Sequence record: MK524178.1
DNA length: 64,000 bases
Origin: Escherichia phage PHB12
Direction: 5' to 3' (one strand)
The notes beneath the pieces are model-generated. The model searched no databases. It was not told the origin of the DNA and saw only the letters and a list, made by a program, of their open reading frames with translations. Shown piece by piece: positions 42,906 through 53,378 of this stretch. The translations under genes were made by a program, and so were the position numbers. How positions within the stretch are numbered: the first letter of the stretch is position 1; each line of letters starts with the position of its first letter.

Positions 42906-45900
42906 ATGGTTGACATCAAACGTAAGTTCAGGGCCGAAGATGGTCTTGACGCAGGCGGTGATAAGATAGTTAACGTTGCGCTTGCTGACCGCACAGTTGG
43001 CACCGATGGCGTGAACGTTGACTTTTTGGTGCAAGAAAACACCGTACAGAATTATGACGAGACGCGCGCGTATACAAAAGATTTTATTGTTCTTTATGAT
43101 AATCGTTTTTATCAAGCTTTAAGCGATATTCCAGCTCCGGCAGGCCCTTTCTCTTTGGCTAAATGGAAGGCAACTCGTACAGATGCAGAATGGATTACAG
43201 TTCAAGGCGGAGATTTCCAATTATCAGTAGGTAACTCTATTGCGGTTGATACTTCAGCTGGCACTGATATTAATTTCACTTTGCCTCAAAATCCTTTAGA
43301 TGGCGATACAGTTATTTTGTCTGATATTGGCGGTAGAGTAGGCTATGTAAAAGTTCAAATTACTGCAGCGGCTCAAAGTATTGTAAACTTTAGAGGACAA
43401 CAGGTTCGTTCAGTTTTAATGACGCACCCAAAATCTAAAATGGTCTTCATTTTTAGCAACCGCCTATGGCAAATGTATGTTTCTGATTACGAACGTAATG
43501 CAGTCACAGTAACTCCTGCTGCGCCATATCAAGCGCAACCTAATGATTTTATCATTCGACGTTTTACATCAGCCGCTCCTATTAATATTACATTGCCTCG
43601 TAATGCTAATAATGGCGATATTATTAATTTAGTGGATTTGGACAAATTAAACCCATTATATCACACAATTGTCAAAACTTACGATGATACAACTTCTATA
43701 CGAGAAGCTGGTGTTCATGTAGCAGAAGGACGTAATACTGCGGAAGCATTCTTTGTTTATGATTCTGCCAATAGTTTATGGCGTGTTTGGGAAGGTGACC
43801 AGAAATCTCGTTTACGTATAGTTCGTAATGATACTGATTTACGCCCTAATGAAGAAGTTCTTGTTTTTGGAACTAATAATGATACAATCTCGACGGTAAA
43901 TCTTACTTTGCCTACAGATATTTTGTCTGGCGATACTGTTAAAATATCGTTGAATTATATGCGTAAAGGGCAAACTGTAAAAATTAAAGCTGCTGAAGGC
44001 GATACAATTGCTAGCAGTATTTCTTTATTACAGTTCCCAAAACGTTCGGAGTATCCACCTGATGCACAATGGGTTTCTGTTAGTGAGCTAGAATTTAATG
44101 GTGATACTTCGTATGTACCTGTACTTGAGTTAGCTTATATAGAAGATTATTCATCTGAAACAAAATATTGGGTAGTTCAACAAAACACCGTAACCGTCGA
44201 ACGAGTCGATGCATCGAGCAATACCACTCGAGCTCGTTTAGGTGTTATTGCTCTTGCTTCTCAAGCGCAAGCAAATGTCGATTTAGAAAATGCTCCTGGT
44301 AAAGAACTGGCTATTACTCCGGAAACATTAGCAAATCGTACAGCAACTGAAACTCGTCGTGGTATTGCTCGTATTGCAACAACTGCACAAGTTAACCAGA
44401 ATACCGATTTTGCATTCCAAGACGACTTGATTATTTCTCCTAAGAAATTGAACGAACGTACAGCAACTGAAACCCGTAGAGGTGTTGCTGAAGTTGCAAC
44501 TCAGGCTGAAACTAATGCTGGAACAGATGACACCACTATTATTACTCCTAAGAAATTGGATGGCCGTCAAGGTTCTGAAGTTTTATCTGGTATTGTAAAA
44601 TACACATCTACGACTGGTACTACAGCGGCTACTGTTCGTGGTAATGCTGGGACTAACGTTTATAACAAAGCCGTAGATAATTTAACTATTTCTCCAAAGG
44701 CTCTTGACCAGTATAAAGCTACCCCTACTCAGCAGGGTGCAGTAATTCTTGCTATTGAAAGTGAAGTTATCGCTGGCGAATCACAAGCTGGTTGGGCTAA
44801 TGCTGTAGTGACCCCTGAAACTCTGCATAAGAAAACTTCTACTGATGGACGTATTGGTTTAATTGAAATTGCTACGCAAGCAGAAACTAACACTGGAACT
44901 GATTATACTAGAGCAGTAACGCCTAAGACGTTAAATGATAGGAAAGCTACGGAAGGATTATCTGGCATAGCCGAAATTGCTACGCAAGTTGAATTTGATA
45001 CTGGAACTGATGATACTCGTATCTCGACTCCACTGAAAATTAAAACTCATTTTGATTCTTCTGACCGTACCAGTGTTAATTCTGATTCCGGACTTATTGA
45101 AGAAGGAACCTTGTGGAACCATTATACTCTTGATATTTCTAAAGCAAATGAAACACAACGTGGTACACTTCGCGTAGCTACTCAGGCAGAATCTAATGCC
45201 GGAACTTTAGATGATGTTCTTATTACTCCTAAAAAACTTTTAGGGACTAAGTCCACTGAAACGTCTGAAGGCGTGATTAAGGTTGCTACTCAGGCTGAAA
45301 CTGTAACAGGAACTTCTGCTAATACTGCTGTATCACCTAAGAATTTAAAATGGATTGTCCAGAATGAACCAACATGGGCTGCTACTACGGCAATTCGTGG
45401 ATTCGTTAAAACTTCATCTGGTTCTATTACATTCGTTGGTGACGATACTCAAGGTAGTACCCAGGACCTGAATCTTTACGAGAAAAATAGTTATGCTATT
45501 TCTCCATATGAATTAAACCGTGTACTTGCTAACTATTTGCCATTGAAAGCTAAAGCCGTAGATAGTAATCTGTTAGATGGTCTAGATTCTCTTCAGTTCA
45601 TCCGTAGAGACATCGACCAGACGGTTAATGGTTCTTTAAGTCTTACTAAACAGACCAACCTGAGTGCTCCTTTAGTATCTACAAGCACTGCTTCTTTTGG
45701 TTCCGAAGCATCTGTTACTCGTAGATTAACTCTTAATGACTCTAGTGGTTCCGAAATAGTTTTCACTAAAGGAACTCAATCTCTTAGTAATAAAGAGAAT
45801 TTCGTTGTTAGAGCATGGGGTAATAGCGCTACAGATGGTGCCCGTGATACAGTATTTGAAGCGGGTGACGAAACCGGATACCATTTCTATTCTCAGCGCG

Positions 45901-46739
45901 CTTCTGATAATAAAGTATCATTTAATATTAATGGAACACTTTATTCAACAGGCATTGTTTCTACAAATGGATTAAACGTTACAGGTTTTTCTACCTTTAC
46001 CGGGCCTATTAGTGCTACAGGCGAAATTGTTTCTAGTTCTCCTATTGCATTCAGAGCTATTAACGGTAACTATGGTGTTATGCTTTATAACGCTGGTAAC
46101 AGTTCTTATATTGCATTAACTAACTCAGGTGACCAGACCGGGACGTTTAATAACTTACGCCCGATCACGATTAACAACGCCACAGGCTTAGTTCGTCTTG
46201 ACAATGGTGTTCAAATCACAAGTGGTGCAACAATAACTACCGGTGGGTTAACTGTAAATAACAGGATTATTTCTAACGGCGTTAAAACTGCCACGGTTTA
46301 TACCGATAAACCAACAGCTTCTACTGTAGGTTTTTGGTCTATTGACATTAACGATTCTGCCGTATATAGCCAATTCCCTGGATACTGGACGCGTGATAAC
46401 AAAGGTAACCGTGACCAAGAAATTAAATATCCTGGTACTTTGACTCAATTCGGTAATAGCTTAGATTCGCTTTATCAGGATTGGATTTGTTATCCTACAG
46501 GTGCAAATGGCGGTAGTATTCGTTATACTCGTACCTGGCAGAAAAATAAAGATGCTTGGACTTCATTTGCAATGGTATTTGATAGTGGCAACCCACCTTC
46601 ACCTAGCGATGTCGGTGCTATCCCGTCTGATAATGCTGTTATTGGAAACCTTACTATTCGAGACTTCTTACAATTAGGAAATGTGAGAATTGTTCCGGAC
46701 CCGGTTAACAAAACAGTTAAATTTATATGGGTTGAATAA
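42906..46739 (+). CDS. 34: long tail fibre proximal subunit gp34
   Basis: 1277 aa; N- and C-terminal regions match T4 gp34. Confidence 0.96.
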   Translation: MVDIKRKFRAEDGLDAGGDKIVNVALADRTVGTDGVNVDFLVQENTVQNYDETRAYTKDFIVLYDNRFYQALSDIPAPAGPFSLAKWKATRTDAEWITVQGGDFQLSVGNSIAVDTSAGTDINFTLPQNPLDGDTVILSDIGGRVGYVKVQITAAAQSIVNFRGQQVRSVLMTHPKSKMVFIFSNRLWQMYVSDYERNAVTVTPAAPYQAQPNDFIIRRFTSAAPINITLPRNANNGDIINLVDLDKLNPLYHTIVKTYDDTTSIREAGVHVAEGRNTAEAFFVYDSANSLWRVWEGDQKSRLRIVRNDTDLRPNEEVLVFGTNNDTISTVNLTLPTDILSGDTVKISLNYMRKGQTVKIKAAEGDTIASSISLLQFPKRSEYPPDAQWVSVSELEFNGDTSYVPVLELAYIEDYSSETKYWVVQQNTVTVERVDASSNTTRARLGVIALASQAQANVDLENAPGKELAITPETLANRTATETRRGIARIATTAQVNQNTDFAFQDDLIISPKKLNERTATETRRGVAEVATQAETNAGTDDTTIITPKKLDGRQGSEVLSGIVKYTSTTGTTAATVRGNAGTNVYNKAVDNLTISPKALDQYKATPTQQGAVILAIESEVIAGESQAGWANAVVTPETLHKKTSTDGRIGLIEIATQAETNTGTDYTRAVTPKTLNDRKATEGLSGIAEIATQVEFDTGTDDTRISTPLKIKTHFDSSDRTSVNSDSGLIEEGTLWNHYTLDISKANETQRGTLRVATQAESNAGTLDDVLITPKKLLGTKSTETSEGVIKVATQAETVTGTSANTAVSPKNLKWIVQNEPTWAATTAIRGFVKTSSGSITFVGDDTQGSTQDLNLYEKNSYAISPYELNRVLANYLPLKAKAVDSNLLDGLDSLQFIRRDIDQTVNGSLSLTKQTNLSAPLVSTSTASFGSEASVTRRLTLNDSSGSEIVFTKGTQSLSNKENFVVRAWGNSATDGARDTVFEAGDETGYHFYSQRASDNKVSFNINGTLYSTGIVSTNGLNVTGFSTFTGPISATGEIVSSSPIAFRAINGNYGVMLYNAGNSSYIALTNSGDQTGTFNNLRPITINNATGLVRLDNGVQITSGATITTGGLTVNNRIISNGVKTATVYTDKPTASTVGFWSIDINDSAVYSQFPGYWTRDNKGNRDQEIKYPGTLTQFGNSLDSLYQDWICYPTGANGGSIRYTRTWQKNKDAWTSFAMVFDSGNPPSPSDVGAIPSDNAVIGNLTIRDFLQLGNVRIVPDPVNKTVKFIWVE

Positions 46740-46747
46740 GAGGTTAT

Positions 46748-47872
46748 ATGGAAAAATTTATGGCAAGGTTTGGACAGGGATACGTCCAAACGCCGTTTTT
46801 ATCGGAAAGCAATTCAGTTAGATTTAAGCTAAGTATAGCGGGTTCATGCCCGCTTTCAACAACTAATCCGTATATTTTGTTCCAAAACGAGCCTTTAGGG
46901 TTGCAGTCTTTTGGTATTGGGCTAAATGTTAGGGTGATAAATCCGGAAAATGGAACTATAGTTGATAGTAAATTATACAATTTTGCGCCTACAAATAATG
47001 CGACTTCAGCTGCATTTATTTCGTTTGTTAATACATACGCGGATAATTTCATTTTCGCATTTATTTCTAATAACAAATTTAATTTGCCGCCAGAAATAAT
47101 TGAATGGTTTAAAGCTGCTGGGAGTTCAGTTATACCGTCAATTGAAGTTGCTAGTCTTGTTGATATTTCATATTCAGCGTTTTATGTTTCAGGTAAAAAT
47201 ACTATTGCATTAGAACACATAAAATACAGTAATAAGAAAACAATTTCTGATTACGCAACTCCATTAGATATTGTATATGACTCTATTGCTGATATAGGTG
47301 CTACCGGCTATCCTAGACGTACATATGAAGCTCTAGAAACGTTTTTATCTCCTGTTGGAAGAACTAACAATGAAATAAAAAGGATGCCTACATCATCCCT
47401 TGTTACTCCTATCGCAAACTATGGATTAAAGCCTACTGATTTTCTTTATTTGAAATTTCAATTAATGGCTGATGAAGAATTATTAGAGGAAGGAACCACA
47501 AGACTTTCAATTCGTTTCTTTAAGTCTCCATCTAGCTCTCCTATATCATCTAAAGATATAAACTTTGATGGAACTGCCGGGGAGTGGAAGCTATATGAAG
47601 AATACGTTGAAATACCAGCTGAAGCTGATGGCTTTACAGTATATTGTTACCGTACGGCCCCAGTCGGTCAAGGTGGACTAAGAAATGTTATTTTCACTGA
47701 AGTATCATGTAACGGAAGTATAGCAAAACCCGCCGAGTTTGGTATAAACGGTATTCGTGTTAATTACATTGATGAATCATTAACAGGTAATGATATAATG
47801 GACTTGCCTACTCAGTTATCTAACGACACAGGTAAGGTATTTGGGCAGGAATTTAAAGAGTACACAGAATAA
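46748..47872 (+). CDS. 35: long tail fibre hinge connector gp35
   Basis: 374 aa; position and length. Confidence 0.9.
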   Translation: MEKFMARFGQGYVQTPFLSESNSVRFKLSIAGSCPLSTTNPYILFQNEPLGLQSFGIGLNVRVINPENGTIVDSKLYNFAPTNNATSAAFISFVNTYADNFIFAFISNNKFNLPPEIIEWFKAAGSSVIPSIEVASLVDISYSAFYVSGKNTIALEHIKYSNKKTISDYATPLDIVYDSIADIGATGYPRRTYEALETFLSPVGRTNNEIKRMPTSSLVTPIANYGLKPTDFLYLKFQLMADEELLEEGTTRLSIRFFKSPSSSPISSKDINFDGTAGEWKLYEEYVEIPAEADGFTVYCYRTAPVGQGGLRNVIFTEVSCNGSIAKPAEFGINGIRVNYIDESLTGNDIMDLPTQLSNDTGKVFGQEFKEYTE

Positions 47873-47897: not shown

Positions 47898-47905
47898 TAT
47901 AAATA
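47898..47905 (+). promoter_or_regulatory. late promoter (TATAAATA) for gene 36
   Basis: Exact match 26 nt upstream of the gene 36 ATG, SD AAGGAG. Confidence 0.75.
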
Positions 47906-47931
47906 CTTTAATATTAATAAGGAGACACGAA

Positions 47932-48588
47932 ATGGCCGATTTAAAAGCCGGAAGTACAGTTGGTGGTTCCGTCATATGGCATCAAGGCAATTTTCCTTTA
48001 ATGCCAGCTGGCGATGACATCCTATATAAAACATTTAAATTATACACCGAATATAACAAGCCAAAAGCGGCTGATAACGATTTCGTATCTAAAGCAAATG
48101 GTGGGACATATCTCAAAAAGGTAATCTTTAACGAAGGTGTTGCAGTCAAAACAGCAGATGACCAAACGAATGGTATTTTTTCTGGTGGTGGTGACGCCGC
48201 GACATTCGACCAAACAAACATGGATATTGTTTCGTGGTATGGTATTGGGTTTAAATCATCTCAAGGTACAGGTGAAAGAACTGTTGTAATTGATACTCGC
48301 ACCGGTAATATAAGTTCTAAAGGCGTTATTGAAGCATCTCAATTCAGAGCCACAACGTTAGCACCTTTAAATAATTACGACCTTACTCGCAAAGATTATG
48401 TTGATAGTCAAATAAATACAGTTAATGCTAATGCAAACAGTCGTGTACTCCGTTCAGGAGATACGATGACCGGTGCGCTAACCGCCCCAAACTTTTTCTC
48501 ACAGAATCCTGCATCTCAACCCTCGCATGTTCCACGATTTGACCAAATTGTTATTAAGGATTCTGTTCAAGATTTCGGCTATTATTAA
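47932..48588 (+). CDS. 36: long tail fibre distal connector gp36
   Basis: 218 aa; position and length. Confidence 0.9.
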   Translation: MADLKAGSTVGGSVIWHQGNFPLMPAGDDILYKTFKLYTEYNKPKAADNDFVSKANGGTYLKKVIFNEGVAVKTADDQTNGIFSGGGDAATFDQTNMDIVSWYGIGFKSSQGTGERTVVIDTRTGNISSKGVIEASQFRATTLAPLNNYDLTRKDYVDSQINTVNANANSRVLRSGDTMTGALTAPNFFSQNPASQPSHVPRFDQIVIKDSVQDFGYY

Positions 48589-48596
48589 GAGGACTT

Positions 48597-51500
48597 ATGG
48601 CTACTTTAAAACAAATACAATTTAAAAGAAGCAAAACTGCAGGAGCACGTCCTGCCGCTTCAGTATTAGCCGAAGGTGAATTGGCTATAAATTTAAAAGA
48701 CCGCGTACTTTTTACTAAAGATGACCAAGGAAATATCATTGATCTGGGTTTTGCTAAAGGCGGTAGCATTGACGGGAATGTTATTCATATAGGAAATTAT
48801 AATCAAACTGGTGATTATACTTTAAATGGCACTTTCACTCAGACAGGTAATTTTAATTTAACTGGTATTGCTCGAGTAACTCGTGATATTATTGCCGCCG
48901 GGCAGATTATGACTGAAGGCGGTGAACTTATTACAAAAAGTTCAGGTACAGCACATGTTCGTTTTTTCGATGGCAATAGCCGCGAACGTGGCATTATCTT
49001 TTCGCCAAATAATGCTGGAGCGACCACTCAGGTAGTTAATATTCGCGTACAAGATTATGCCGCTGATAGCGAAAGCATTTATGCGTTTTCAGGCAACGGT
49101 GTATTTTCTTCACCTGAAGTATCGGCACGGAAATCTATTTCGTCTCCACAAATTCTGACCGATAAAGTTATTACAGATGGGAAGAAGACGGGCGATTATG
49201 ATATATCTTCATTATCAAATAACACTCCATTGGCAGAAAGCGAAACGGCTATTAACCACCTCCGTGTTATGCGAAATGCTGTAGGAGCAGGTATTTTCCA
49301 CGAAGTTAATGTTAATGACGGAATAACCTGGTATTCCGGAGATGGACTTGACACTTATCTTTGGTCGTTTAACTGGGCCGGTGGATTGAAAGCCGGTCAT
49401 TCTATTTCTGTAGGTCTTCCAGGCGGCCCTAAAGGATATTCTGAGTTAGGAACGGCCTCAATTGCTCTTGGTGATAATGATACCGGATTAAAATGGTATC
49501 AAGATGGTTATTTCTATGTAGTAAACAATGGTACGAGAACTTTCCTTTATAGTCCTGAATCAACCGTAAGCCTTAGAAAAATGGTTATGGGTTATTCTGT
49601 AAATGGCAATGATTTGACTACTCCTCCGACTGAAAACTATGCTTTGGCTACTGTTGTTACTTACCATGATAATAATGCGTATGGTGACGGTCAGACTCTT
49701 TTAGGATATTACCAAGGCGGTAATTATCATCACTATTTCCGTGGTAAAGGTACTACAAATATTAATACTCACGGCGGTTTATTAGTCACTCCTGGTAATA
49801 TTGACGTTATTGGTGGTTCTGTTAATATTGATGGTCGTAATAATGCTTCTACGCTGATGTTTAGAGGTAACACAACTGGTAGCAGTTCAGTTGATAATAT
49901 GACTATCAACGTTTGGGGTAACACCTTTAGTACAGTAGATGGTTTTCGTAAAAACGTGATGGAAATATCTGATGCTATTGGTTGGATGCATTATATTCAG
50001 CGCAATAAAGATAATACCATTGAGGCTGTATTAAATGGACAACAAACTATTAACGAAAATCTTGTTGTTAAAAAAGATATTTTGGTTGATAGAGCGGTCC
50101 ATACCGCAGGCGAAATTACTACAAGTGCTGTTAACGGGCTCCGCATCTGGAACAACGATTATGGCGCCATTTTTAGACGTTCGGAAGGAAGTCTTCATAT
50201 TATTCCTACTGCATTCGGTGAAGGCATGTCCGGTGATATTGGCCCACTTCGCCCGTTTAGTTTGGCTTTAGATACTGGTAAAGTTACTATTCCAGATTTA
50301 CAATCAAGTTACAATACGTTTGCTGCTAACGGTTATATTAAATTTGTTGGTCATGGAGCGGGTGCCGGTGGATATGATATTCAATATGCCCAAGCGGCTC
50401 CTATTTTCCAGGAAATTGATGATGATGCTATAAGCAAATATTATCCTATTGTTAAACAGAAGTTTTTAAACGGTAAATCCGTTTGGTCTTTAGGTACTGA
50501 AATTAATTCGGGTACATTTGTTTTACACCATATCAAAGAAGATGGATCACAAGGACATACATCTCGTTTTAATCAAGACGGTACTGTTAACTTCCCGGAT
50601 AACGTTCTGGTCGGCGGTGGCGAAGCTGCTATTGCTCGTAATGGTAATATTTTCTCGGATATCTGGAAAACGTTTACTTCAGCAGGAGACATTACAAATA
50701 TTCGCGATGCAATAGCTACTCGTGTTGCTAAAGAAGGCGATACGATGACCGGCACTCTTTGGATTAATAAAGATGCTGCTGGAATAGTTCTTAATCCTCC
50801 TTTGTCTAGTGATTCATCATTTATTCGTTCTGATACGGCCGGGGCCAATAATTGGTATATTGGTAAAGGCGGTGCCGACAATGGTCTAGGTTTTTACAGT
50901 TACATTACACAAGGCGGTGTATACATAACAAATACCGGTGAAATATCGCTTTCTCCTCAAGGACAAGGAACATTTAATTTTAATAGAGACCGCCTTTATA
51001 TAAATGCTAGTCAATGGGTTGCACATAAATCTGGCGCTTGGGGCGACCAATGGGGCTTAGAAGCTCCTATATTTGTGGATTTTGGTGGTGTCGGTAATGA
51101 TAGTTATTATCCGATTATCAAAGGAAAATCTGGTATTACCAATGAAGGATATATATCGGGTGTAGATTTCGGTATGCGTCGTATTACTAATACATGGGCC
51201 CAAGCTATTATCCGTGTTGGTAACCAGGAAAGCGAGTCGAACCCGCAAGCTATCTATGAATTCCACTCTAATGGCACTTTTTATGCTCCGAGCTTACTTA
51301 AGAGTAACAGAGTATCGGCTGGTGGTGGTGACCCAGCATGGGGCAGTCCTTGTATTGTATTAGGTGACAATGATACCGGATTTCTTTGGGAAGCAGATGG
51401 TATTTTCAACGCATATGCAAACGGCCAAGGCGTATTCAGTTTTAGAGCTGGTCTCGCACAAACGTTCGGTAACGTTAACTTCCACTGTAACGCCGGTATG

Positions 51501-51863
51501 TATGTTCGTGATAACATTGATGTTAACGATGTTTATATCCGTTCTGATATTCGTTGTAAGTCAGAAATTAAGCTTATTAAGAACGCTCAAGAGAAATCTA
51601 AACTCTTAGGCGGCTATACTTATCTGCTTAAAAACCCTGTTACAGACGAAGTTAAACCGTCTGCAGGTTTAATTGCTCAGGAAGTTCAAGAAATATTGCC
51701 TGAACTTGTTTCTGAAGATAAAGAGACCGGCTTACTTCGTTTAAACTATAACGGTATTATCGGTTTAAATACTGCTACTATCAACGAGCATACTGACGAA
51801 ATCAAGGAATTGAAATCTGAAATTGCTGAATTGAAAGCATTAATTAAATCATTGATAAAATAA
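48597..51863 (+). CDS. 37: long tail fibre distal subunit gp37 (T2-type, with C-terminal chaperone domain)
   Basis: 1088 aa; conserved N-terminus MATLKQIQFKRSKTAGARP; C-terminal 106 aa carry the self-cleaving chaperone signature. Confidence 0.93.
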   Translation: MATLKQIQFKRSKTAGARPAASVLAEGELAINLKDRVLFTKDDQGNIIDLGFAKGGSIDGNVIHIGNYNQTGDYTLNGTFTQTGNFNLTGIARVTRDIIAAGQIMTEGGELITKSSGTAHVRFFDGNSRERGIIFSPNNAGATTQVVNIRVQDYAADSESIYAFSGNGVFSSPEVSARKSISSPQILTDKVITDGKKTGDYDISSLSNNTPLAESETAINHLRVMRNAVGAGIFHEVNVNDGITWYSGDGLDTYLWSFNWAGGLKAGHSISVGLPGGPKGYSELGTASIALGDNDTGLKWYQDGYFYVVNNGTRTFLYSPESTVSLRKMVMGYSVNGNDLTTPPTENYALATVVTYHDNNAYGDGQTLLGYYQGGNYHHYFRGKGTTNINTHGGLLVTPGNIDVIGGSVNIDGRNNASTLMFRGNTTGSSSVDNMTINVWGNTFSTVDGFRKNVMEISDAIGWMHYIQRNKDNTIEAVLNGQQTINENLVVKKDILVDRAVHTAGEITTSAVNGLRIWNNDYGAIFRRSEGSLHIIPTAFGEGMSGDIGPLRPFSLALDTGKVTIPDLQSSYNTFAANGYIKFVGHGAGAGGYDIQYAQAAPIFQEIDDDAISKYYPIVKQKFLNGKSVWSLGTEINSGTFVLHHIKEDGSQGHTSRFNQDGTVNFPDNVLVGGGEAAIARNGNIFSDIWKTFTSAGDITNIRDAIATRVAKEGDTMTGTLWINKDAAGIVLNPPLSSDSSFIRSDTAGANNWYIGKGGADNGLGFYSYITQGGVYITNTGEISLSPQGQGTFNFNRDRLYINASQWVAHKSGAWGDQWGLEAPIFVDFGGVGNDSYYPIIKGKSGITNEGYISGVDFGMRRITNTWAQAIIRVGNQESESNPQAIYEFHSNGTFYAPSLLKSNRVSAGGGDPAWGSPCIVLGDNDTGFLWEADGIFNAYANGQGVFSFRAGLAQTFGNVNFHCNAGMYVRDNIDVNDVYIRSDIRCKSEIKLIKNAQEKSKLLGGYTYLLKNPVTDEVKPSAGLIAQEVQEILPELVSEDKETGLLRLNYNGIIGLNTATINEHTDEIKELKSEIAELKALIKSLIK
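51543..51860 (+). other. C-terminal intramolecular chaperone / autoproteolytic domain of gp37 (peptidase S74-like)
   Basis: SDIRCKSEI...GLIAQEVQEILPELV...coiled-coil tail, typical of endosialidase/T5 fibre chaperone domains. Confidence 0.75.
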
Positions 51864-51868
51864 TAAAA

Positions 51869-51882
51869 GGGCCTTCGGGCCC
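51869..51882 (+). other. stem-loop after gene 37 (no T-run)
   Basis: GGGCC-TTCG-GGCCC, followed directly by the gene 38 SD. Confidence 0.5.
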
Positions 51883-51893
51883 TGGAGGTTTAT

Positions 51894-52673
51894 ATGGCAG
51901 TAGTAGGAATCCCTGGTTGGATTGGGACCTCAGCCGTTGCTGAAACGGGTCAAAGATGGATGACGGCTGCTTCAAGGGAACTTCGTTTAGGAAACCCTTC
52001 ATGGATGTCCCAATTCGCGGGCCGTTCAAGAGAAATAATTCATACACTTGGTGCAGACCATAACTTTAACGGACAATGGTTCCGTGACCGTTGCTTTGAA
52101 GCTGGCGGCGCTCCTATAGTGTTTAATATCACCGGAAATTTGGTATCATATAGTAAAGATGTTCCATTATTCTTTATGTATGGCGATACACCAAATGAAT
52201 ATGTTACTTTGAATATTCATGGTGGAGTTCATATGTGGGGACGAGGTGGTAACGGTACTGTAAACGGAAACCCAGGCACAAATGGCGGCGATGTAATCCA
52301 AAATGATATCGGCGGAAGACTTCGTATTTGGAACTATGGCGTTATTGCATCAGGCGGTGGCGGTGGTGGTGCAGTGTCATTACAGAATAGCTGGGCGCCA
52401 AATGCTACAGCAGGTGGCGGTGGTGGTAGACCATTTGGCATCGGCGGAGGTGGCGTTAATTGGCCAGGTGGTAATGCTAGTTATGACGCCCCGGGCGGTG
52501 CCGGTTACACTTCCCAATTCGGCGGAGGCAATGGCGGTGATGCTGGCGCTTGGGGCGGAGATGGATGGGGTAATCACTTATCTAGATCTGGCGGTGGTGC
52601 TCCTGGCAGAGCAGTATTCGGAAGTTCACCGTCATGGGGTGCTACAGGCACAATCTACGGCTCCTGGATTTAA
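51894..52673 (+). CDS. 38: receptor-recognising adhesin gp38 (T2/T6 type)
   Basis: 259 aa; conserved N-terminus [11 protein letters not shown] and C-terminal glycine-rich motifs separated by variable segments. Confidence 0.88.
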
Positions 52674-52691
52674 ACGATAATACCTCTCAAT

Positions 52692-52699
52692 TATAAATA
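52692..52699 (+). promoter_or_regulatory. late promoter (TATAAATA) for holin t
   Basis: Exact match 19 nt upstream of the ATG, SD GGGAGG. Confidence 0.7.
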
Positions 52700-52718
52700 T
52701 TGATAAATGGGAGGTAAT

Positions 52719-53378
52719 ATGGCAGCACCAAAAGTATCATTTTCGCCTAGTGATATTTTATTTGGGTTGCTAGACCGCATTTTCAAAGATAACGCCTCTG
52801 GAAATATTCTTATTTCAAGAGTTGCTGTTGTAGTTCTTTTGTTCCTAATGGCACTAATATGGTACAAAGGGAATATTTTTATGGATTATTACGTGAGGTC
52901 GAAATATGATACTTACACAGAAGTAATTCAAAAAGAAAGAAATACACGATTTGAATCTGCGGCTTTAGAACAACTACAAATAGTCCACGTCACATCAAGG
53001 GCGGATTTTAGTTCGGTGTATTCTTTCAGACCTAAAAATCTAAATTATTTCGTCGACCTTATTGCGTATGAAGGTAAGTTACCTAGCACAGTAACTGAAA
53101 AATCTATGGGAGGATTTCCTGTTGATAAAACGACAGCAGAATATTCGGTCCATTTAAGTGGACTTCACTTTACTTCTAAAACAGATTTTGCTTTCTTACC
53201 TACCAAATCAAAAACTCCGGAACTGGCGTATATGTATAGTTGTCCTTACTTCAATTTGGATAACATATATGCTGGAACTGTTTCTATGTATTGGTATAAG
53301 GGGTCGGATGTGTTAAATGAAGAACGCTTGGCTGCAATATGCAACCAAGCAGCAAGGATATTAGGGCGGGCTAAATAA
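52719..53378 (+). CDS. t: holin T
   Basis: 219 aa from internal ATG (MAAPKVSFSPSDILFG...), one TM helix, large periplasmic domain; matches T4 T. Confidence 0.93.
   Translation: MAAPKVSFSPSDILFGLLDRIFKDNASGNILISRVAVVVLLFLMALIWYKGNIFMDYYVRSKYDTYTEVIQKERNTRFESAALEQLQIVHVTSRADFSSVYSFRPKNLNYFVDLIAYEGKLPSTVTEKSMGGFPVDKTTAEYSVHLSGLHFTSKTDFAFLPTKSKTPELAYMYSCPYFNLDNIYAGTVSMYWYKGSDVLNEERLAAICNQAARILGRAK

Follow-up and report, generated by a model that had tools for sequence, protein, structure and literature searches.

A very probable T2/S16-type long tail fibre tip in the Mosigvirus phapec2-like coliphage PHB12

The mechanism by which T2-type long tail fibres acquire their tip is already known. In T2 and T6, gp37 is cleaved and gp38 then caps the fibre, as described in 1986 (Drexler 1986, as cited in PMC3157838). 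The layout of gp38 as glycine-rich motifs and hypervariable segments was set out by Trojet 2011 (PMC3157838), and the structure of the S16 tip dates from 2018 (Dunne 2018, as cited in PMC7917993). According to the account given there, the last 113 aa of S16 gp37 form a chaperone domain that autocleaves at DLNVS^SDRRIKK after trimerisation, exposing a docking face for gp38, and tryptophans of gp38 reach like prongs into the tip of gp37 (PMC7917993). T4 differs in that the receptor-binding needle is part of gp37 itself, gp38 being a chaperone unrelated to the adhesins (PMC3157838).

Here we describe the corresponding locus in Escherichia phage PHB12 (MK524178.1), of which a stretch of 64,000 nucleotides, referred to below as the window, was analysed. 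On nucleotide similarity the window is that of a Mosigvirus phapec2-like coliphage, with ~95% identity over a 24-kb stretch to OLB35, Shf125875, AlbertHofmann (Bas47) and PhAPEC2; AlbertHofmann is classified as Mosigvirus phapec2. Thirteen deposited phages match the 1.4 kb surrounding the tip locus at 93.7-96.9% identity, and GenBank already contains near-identical genes, seven of its records encoding a gp38 that is at least 99% identical. We read the locus with high confidence as a T2/S16-type long tail fibre tip working by the mechanism proposed below.

The fibre locus lies in a late-gene block on the + strand, in the order 34-35-36-37-38-t-asiA and with late promoters, as follows.

42864: T4-type late promoter TATAAATA, before g34
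42906-46739, + strand: gp34-like protein of 1277 aa, resembling a T4-family fibre protein
46748-47872, + strand: gp35-like protein, resembling a T4-family fibre protein
47898..47905, + strand: T4-type late promoter TATAAATA, before g36
47932-48588, + strand: gp36 (Pfam Phage_T4_gp36)
48597-51863, + strand: g37, encoding the precursor of the distal subunit of the long tail fibre, with 1088 aa and 117.5 kDa (open reading frame; annotation of relatives)
51894-52673, + strand: g38, T2-type fibre-tip adhesin, 259 aa, 26.3 kDa (Pfam, PDB and PHROG matches)
52692..52699, + strand: late promoter TATAAATA, before holin gene t, where the fibre operon ends on its 3' side
Start at 52707 or 52719, + strand: holin t (Pfam Phage_holin_T, E 5.6e-89)
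3' of holin t, minus strand: asiA-like gene and early genes

Between these three promoters (42864, 47898 and 52692) no further TATAAATA was found, the + strand from 47905 to 52692 included, and g36, g37 and g38 therefore look co-transcribed; by analogy with T4, the promoter at 47898 probably drives all three as a single late transcript. A late promoter is annotated in the fPS-2 record at the position matching that at 52692. Gene g38 lies directly 3' of a chaperone-bearing g37 and 5' of holin t, and the same arrangement was seen in T2, T6, PP01, S16, fPS-2 and Bas47. Three open reading frames inside g38 (52303-52680 on the + strand, 52380-52577 and 51844-52047 on the minus strand) were taken to be artefacts that arise from its many GGN codons.

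An earlier sequence-only reading had placed a self-cleaving chaperone domain in the last 106 residues of gp37 and a 259-aa adhesin directly after it, and its coordinates, lengths and motifs proved exact: nucleotide 51543 is the first base of gp37 codon 983, a serine, and gp38 runs for 259 aa to 52673. The elements of the gp37 C-terminus are these.

51528..51542, + strand: DVYIR, aa 978-982, predicted to be the final strand of mature gp37 and the face on which gp38 docks
51543..51860, + strand: intramolecular chaperone domain, aa 983-1088, 11.8 kDa (PF13884, 6F45_A, profile and PHROG matches)
51543-51710, + strand: S74 core of the chaperone domain (Pfam Peptidase_S74)
51543-51545, + strand: predicted nucleophile, Ser983
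51558-51560, + strand: predicted general base, Lys988
51774..51860, + strand: heptad-repeat (coiled-coil) tail of the chaperone domain, ~aa 1060-1088, with I/L at a/d positions

The last 106 residues open with SDIRCKSEI and run SDIRCKSEIKLIKNAQEK...GLIAQEVQEILPELV...EIKELKSEIAELKALIKSLIK, with GLIAQEVQEILPELV at aa 1024-1038. Residues 983-1038 matched PF13884 (Peptidase_S74, 'Chaperone of endosialidase') at E 1.9e-11 over profile positions 1-57 of 58, scoring 44.5 bits against a curated cut-off of 22 bits, which bears out the chaperone signature that had been proposed. The last 206 aa of gp37 aligned with the S16 gp37 fragment 6F45_A (E 2.4e-31), the segment S^SDRRIKK included. The coiled coil was likewise recovered as a sequence pattern: the last ~35 residues fall into an a/d heptad register in which 8 of the 10 a/d positions are hydrophobic (a = IIIII, d = NHLLL), and this putative helical tail aligns with the C-terminal helix regions of 6F45_A and 7DC3.

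When the chaperone domains of seven T-even phages were combined in a profile and run against the PDB, three solved structures were matched, namely the self-cleaving domain of MYRF (7DC3, 1.9e-9), a phage tail fibre (8JOV, 2.8e-7) and the chaperone domain of the GA-1 neck appendage (3GUD, 7e-4), all three alignments starting at an S/A-D-x-R-x-K motif. SD.R.K was present 97-117 aa from the C-terminus in 28/28 related gp37 proteins from GenBank and IMG/VR, and in 7-way alignments its Ser, Asp, Arg and Lys were invariant, corresponding to S983-D-I-R-C-K988 in the window. Used alone, the 106-aa module matched 31 PHROG tail-fibre families, always at the last ~100 profile positions, which is how a portable C-terminal chaperone module behaves. 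The kinship with the chaperones of endosialidases and T5 fibres held in part. It is the Pfam model and the literature that point to it, but the chains of endosialidase (3GW6) and T5 pb1 were not recovered at E<=1 in PDB sequence or profile searches. The gp37 C-terminal module is a Peptidase_S74 intramolecular chaperone for which cleavage is predicted, the expected products being a mature subunit of 105.7 kDa and a released domain of 11.8 kDa. In the fPS phages, DVYIR^SD is the cut predicted when their gp37 is aligned with the S16 site, which has been mapped (PMC7917993), and gp37 of the window has exactly DVYIR^SDIRCK.

The adhesin gene encodes the following domain and segments, the latter defined by column conservation among 23 distinct gp38 sequences.

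51894..52019, + strand: N-terminal attachment domain of gp38, aa 1-42 (Gp38_N), with invariant W9, W22 and W37
52263..52274, + strand: variable segment 1, aa 124-127, NGNP
52377..52406, + strand: variable segment 2, aa 162-171
52455..52466, + strand: variable segment 3, aa 188-191, VNWP
52506..52523, + strand: variable segment 4, aa 205-210, YTSQFG
52566..52586, + strand: variable segment 5, aa 225-231, WGNHLSR

The conserved N-terminus expected for a T2-type adhesin is present, with a match to Gp38_N (PF21721) over aa 1-42 (E 8e-21), and W9, W22 and W37 are invariant across the window, Bas47, fPS-2, T2, T6, PP01 and S16. The remainder, aa 47-259, matched the whole profile of GP38 (PF05268) at E 7e-83, and gp38 also matched phrog_2056 (E 3.8e-109). 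Over its full length it matched the S16 adhesin 6F45_D (E 1e-48, aa 8-259 on chain residues 6-249), and it also matched 9V85_A, a GFP-gp38 fusion (E 7.5e-73). By eye, against the PP01 row of the gp38 alignment, the 9V85 fusion looks PP01-like. The crystal structure 6F45 contains three gp37 chains and one gp38 chain, a count consistent with a single adhesin per trimeric tip.

The glycine-rich motifs that had been noticed from the letters are indeed of the T2 type. Glycine makes up 25% of gp38 overall and 35% over aa 110-259, with G3-G6 runs at 154-159, 174-178, 184-187, 210-212 and 233-235, and the conserved glycine blocks, GGGAPGRAV included, alternate with the five variable segments. Alignment thus mapped the segments between the glycine motifs, as the sequence-only reading had anticipated. 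The five segments of the window fit the scheme of glycine-rich motifs and hypervariable segments of Trojet 2011 (PMC3157838) and likewise the S16 pattern of five distal loops (PMC7917993).

The identity of the domains, the catalytic motif, the architecture, the gene order and the close similarity to adhesins already characterised were all observed, and the matches of the chaperone and gp38 domains are far beyond chance. The mechanism that we propose, of which we infer the cleavage, the 3:1 stoichiometry and the receptor, would run as follows. In gp37, synthesised as a 1088-aa precursor, trimerisation and the folding of the distal fibre would be nucleated by the 106-aa C-terminal Peptidase_S74 chaperone, which would then cut itself off between Arg982 and Ser983 through a Ser983/Lys988 dyad. 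The cut would uncover a flat hydrophobic tip made of three DVYIR strands. There a single gp38 would attach through aa 1-42, its N-terminal domain, in which Trp 9, 22 and 37 would serve as prongs. Some five variable loops, displayed by the polyglycine sandwich in the C-terminal part of gp38, would bind the outer-membrane receptor, most probably OmpF.

Two other readings bear on the architecture itself. One is that the tip is of the T4 type, the gp37 C-terminus binding the receptor and gp38 serving as an assembly chaperone absent from the virion. Homologues are annotated as 'assembly catalyst' or 'assembly chaperone' in several GenBank records; these labels are misnomers that go back to T4 nomenclature. 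Against a T4-type tip, gp38 matches PF05268, PF21721 and the full-length S16 adhesin structure, and gp37 ends in a module predicted to remove itself. HxH motifs coordinate iron in the T4 gp37 needle. None was found in gp37 of the window, and a PDB search with full-length gp37 returned 6F45_A as its sole match and no T4 gp37 needle, in agreement with the original assignment to T2 rather than T4. A gp38 acting solely as a chaperone was ruled out on this domain and PDB evidence, and we give that reading almost no credence. The other is that the chaperone domain is present but stays uncleaved, or is cut elsewhere, so that the mature tip would be unlike the S16 model. The cysteine between Arg and Lys (SDIRCK) speaks for it, as relatives have L, V, I or A there, but position 5 of the motif varies among active relatives, the Ser/Asp/Arg/Lys motif is invariant, and SDIRCK is also found in the viable isolates AlbertHofmann, NHEP10 and L008. 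Docking of gp38, moreover, depends on a face that lies beneath the chaperone domain (PMC7917993). We consider failure to cleave at this site very improbable, and prefer cleavage between Arg982 and Ser983.

The remaining alternative concerns the receptor. OmpF is our best guess and a probable one, because gp38 is near-identical to that of the OmpF-dependent Bas47 and to that of the OmpF-using fPS-2. From AlbertHofmann (Bas47) gp38 of the window differs at three positions only (A54T, I183L and A219G; 99% identity), which suggests that it is a virion component and sets the receptor; variable segments 1-5 are the same in both, and NHEP10 differs by 2 substitutions. In the BASEL study Bas47 was shown by experiment, with complementation, to depend on ompF, and it depended on the LPS core as well (PMC8594841). 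Yersinia phage fPS-2, with OmpF and LPS core as its receptor (PMC7917993), has 5 differences from the window in aa 37-259 and 11 in aa 6-36. The architecture could nevertheless be as proposed and the primary receptor not be OmpF, recognition being through another porin or dependent on LPS. One or two substitutions in a hypervariable segment can alter receptor use, as in SV76 versus T2 (Trojet 2011, PMC3157838), and this makes the assignment to OmpF risky. A219G (against Bas47) and W220R (against fPS-2) sit just before variable segment 5, so the former adjoins a variable loop, and the LPS core is needed by both Bas47 and fPS-2. Set against the 99% identity to Bas47, the shared segments and the two substitutions from NHEP10, a receptor other than OmpF seems to us unlikely, and we retain OmpF. 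The 'host range' that the sequence-only reading had assigned to gp38 is strictly its primary-receptor specificity, as short tail fibres, LPS and host defences likewise affect host range (PMC8594841).

Comparison with fPS-2 along the locus gave a stepped profile of nucleotide identity.

51300-51893: tip of gp37 plus chaperone, 23-65% when read in steps of 60 nt, mostly 38-62%
51894-52031: N-terminal domain of g38, 68%
52032-52130: linker region of g38, 83%
52131..52673, + strand: specificity cassette of polyglycine motifs and variable loops, 96.9%
52674-52740: past the g38 stop codon, 55%

Since the cassette is 96.9% identical between flanks of 55-68% and fPS-2 is a Tequatrovirus, an OmpF-type cassette has evidently moved between the genera Mosigvirus and Tequatrovirus, one breakpoint falling within g38, at ~52030-52130. 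Such an exchange fits the published modular picture and is not new. Identity of the gp38 N-domain and of the chaperone domain were correlated with a Spearman rho of only 0.24; the association between the two is categorical, in that they travel together and every subtype of the chaperone domain is accompanied by a particular subtype of the N-domain. This association may reflect physical linkage rather than co-adaptation, and because plain linkage may explain it we did not count the pairing of subtypes as evidence for docking.

The 30-nt spacer between g37 and g38 contains two elements.

51869..51882, + strand: GC hairpin GGGCC-UUCG-GGCCC, directly 5' of the SD sequence
51884-51888, + strand: SD sequence GGAGG, after the hairpin and before g38

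A comparable hairpin, with differing stem sequences, was found in 19/20 related spacers when each sequence was folded separately; this procedure was used as RNAalifold on a MAFFT alignment of the spacers had the stems out of register. Compared with shuffled sequences, the hairpin of the window taken alone is not exceptional (z -1.2). That it is a functional RNA element and not a passive leftover is possible but, in our view, rather unlikely. As such an element it could protect the 3' end of a transcript, terminate transcription in part or hold translation down, and it could then help to set a 3:1 gp37:gp38 stoichiometry. It might also be a fixed junction for the exchange of modules.

The tip locus adds no new biology, and its value is that of practical annotation. 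Primary receptor specificity can be placed in gp38, with OmpF as the probable receptor, and the gp38 loops (aa ~122-231) or the cassette at 52131-52673 offer a target for host-range engineering.

Of the systems described, S16 (6F45) has the same two-gene architecture, SDxRxK site, Trp prongs, polyglycine motifs and g38-t synteny as the window, at identities of 50% for gp38 and 41% for the C-terminal 206 aa of gp37. The residues before the cut are DVYIR in the window and DLNVS in S16, the chaperone domain is 106 aa long as against 112-113 aa, and the gp38 loops differ. The receptor of S16 is OmpC. AlbertHofmann (Bas47) is far closer, with 96% identity in the chaperone domain and 88% over the 120 tip residues of gp37 that precede the cut. 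The chaperones of K1F endosialidase, T5 pb1, GA-1 and MYRF share with gp37 a common PF13884 model, a Ser/Lys motif at the start and a C-terminal helical tail; in the window, however, loss of the domain is predicted to make a docking site for a separate adhesin and not to lay bare a receptor-binding site on the same chain. T4 has its fibre genes 34-37 and the position of the locus in common with the window. In T2 and T6, which share the motifs and the synteny, a gp38 of ~260 aa with glycine-rich motifs and hypervariable segments caps gp37 once it has been processed, and the receptors are FadL/OmpF for T2 and Tsx for T6 (PMC3157838). Their gp38 is 52% (T2) and 67% (T6) identical to that of the window, and their chaperone domains, which belong to other subtypes, are only 34% identical to that of PHB12.

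The specificity cassette of g38, the gene of the T2-type fibre-tip adhesin, is nearly the same in the Mosigvirus-like window and in a Tequatrovirus, Yersinia phage fPS-2 (LR215722.1). Across 52131-52673 the two share 96.9% nucleotide identity, and the flanks of the cassette only 55-68%. The 5' breakpoint lies within g38, at about 52030-52130, and the 3' breakpoint falls at the g38 stop codon.

The N-terminal domain of gp38 was also found joined to other C-terminal parts. In four IMG/VR contigs from phages of about 176-180 kb (L024-L027), the gp38-like proteins are 174 aa long and retain this domain (69-71% identity to the window gp38), followed by a shorter, unrelated C-terminal part (24-33% identity). 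Their genes lie 3' of a gp37 with a chaperone domain and the site DVYIR^SDIRLK, and the proteins are of the phrog_1121 type, 'tail fiber adhesin'. In four further IMG/VR contigs (L030-L033) the match, at 2501-2614, falls in proteins of about 190 aa that have only the N-terminal attachment segment in common with gp38 (aa 8-45, 58-61% identity). A scripted scan of the 150 nt upstream of the gp38-like gene in these contigs detected no gp37-like ORF end. These proteins may form a separate adhesin class which has reused the gp38 docking domain.

In many GenBank records the homologs of the gp38 adhesin are called 'distal long tail fiber assembly catalyst/chaperone'. This label comes from T4 and is incorrect for a gp38 of the T2 type. 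In one T2 record in GenBank, asiA is annotated as 'DNA polymerase'.

Two domain matches were seen in neighboring fiber proteins. Residues 451-554 of gp37 (48597-51863) match Gp34_trimer (PF21446) barely over threshold (28.3 bits, cut-off 27), suggesting a gp34-type trimerization module within the gp37 shaft. The gp35-like hinge protein (46748-47872) matches Pfam ILEI (PF15711, 'Interleukin-like EMT inducer') at aa 58-131 (E 6.4e-7, 30.2 bits, cut-off 27), an unexpected family for a fiber hinge protein; the match may reflect a common small beta-rich or lectin-like fold, or else be marginal.

Downstream of g38, the start of holin t was assigned mechanically:

52707-53378: holin t ORF, starting at ATG 52707 (MGGNMAAPK...)

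The true start is probably 52719 instead. GGGAGG at 52709-52714 precedes an ATG at 52719, from which a 660-nt gene (MAAPK...) would be read, as annotated in the relatives NHEP10 and AlbertHofmann.

The spacer between g37 and g38 (51864-51893) holds a GC hairpin, placed between the end of one gene and the ribosome-binding site of the next:

51861-51866, + strand: double stop codon TAATAA of g37, 5' of the hairpin
51869-51882: hairpin GGGCC-UUCG-GGCCC, -12.3 kcal/mol
51884-51888, + strand: Shine-Dalgarno sequence GGAGG of g38, 3' of the hairpin

A GC hairpin of 5-8 bp occupies the same position in 19/20 related loci, including those of T2, PP01, S16 and fPS-2, with stems that vary (GGGGC/GCCCC, GAGCC/GGCUC, GAGGGC/GCCCUC) and energies of -9.2 to -14.5 kcal/mol. 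The window hairpin is similar to the C(UUCG)G intercistronic hairpins known from T4 mRNAs.
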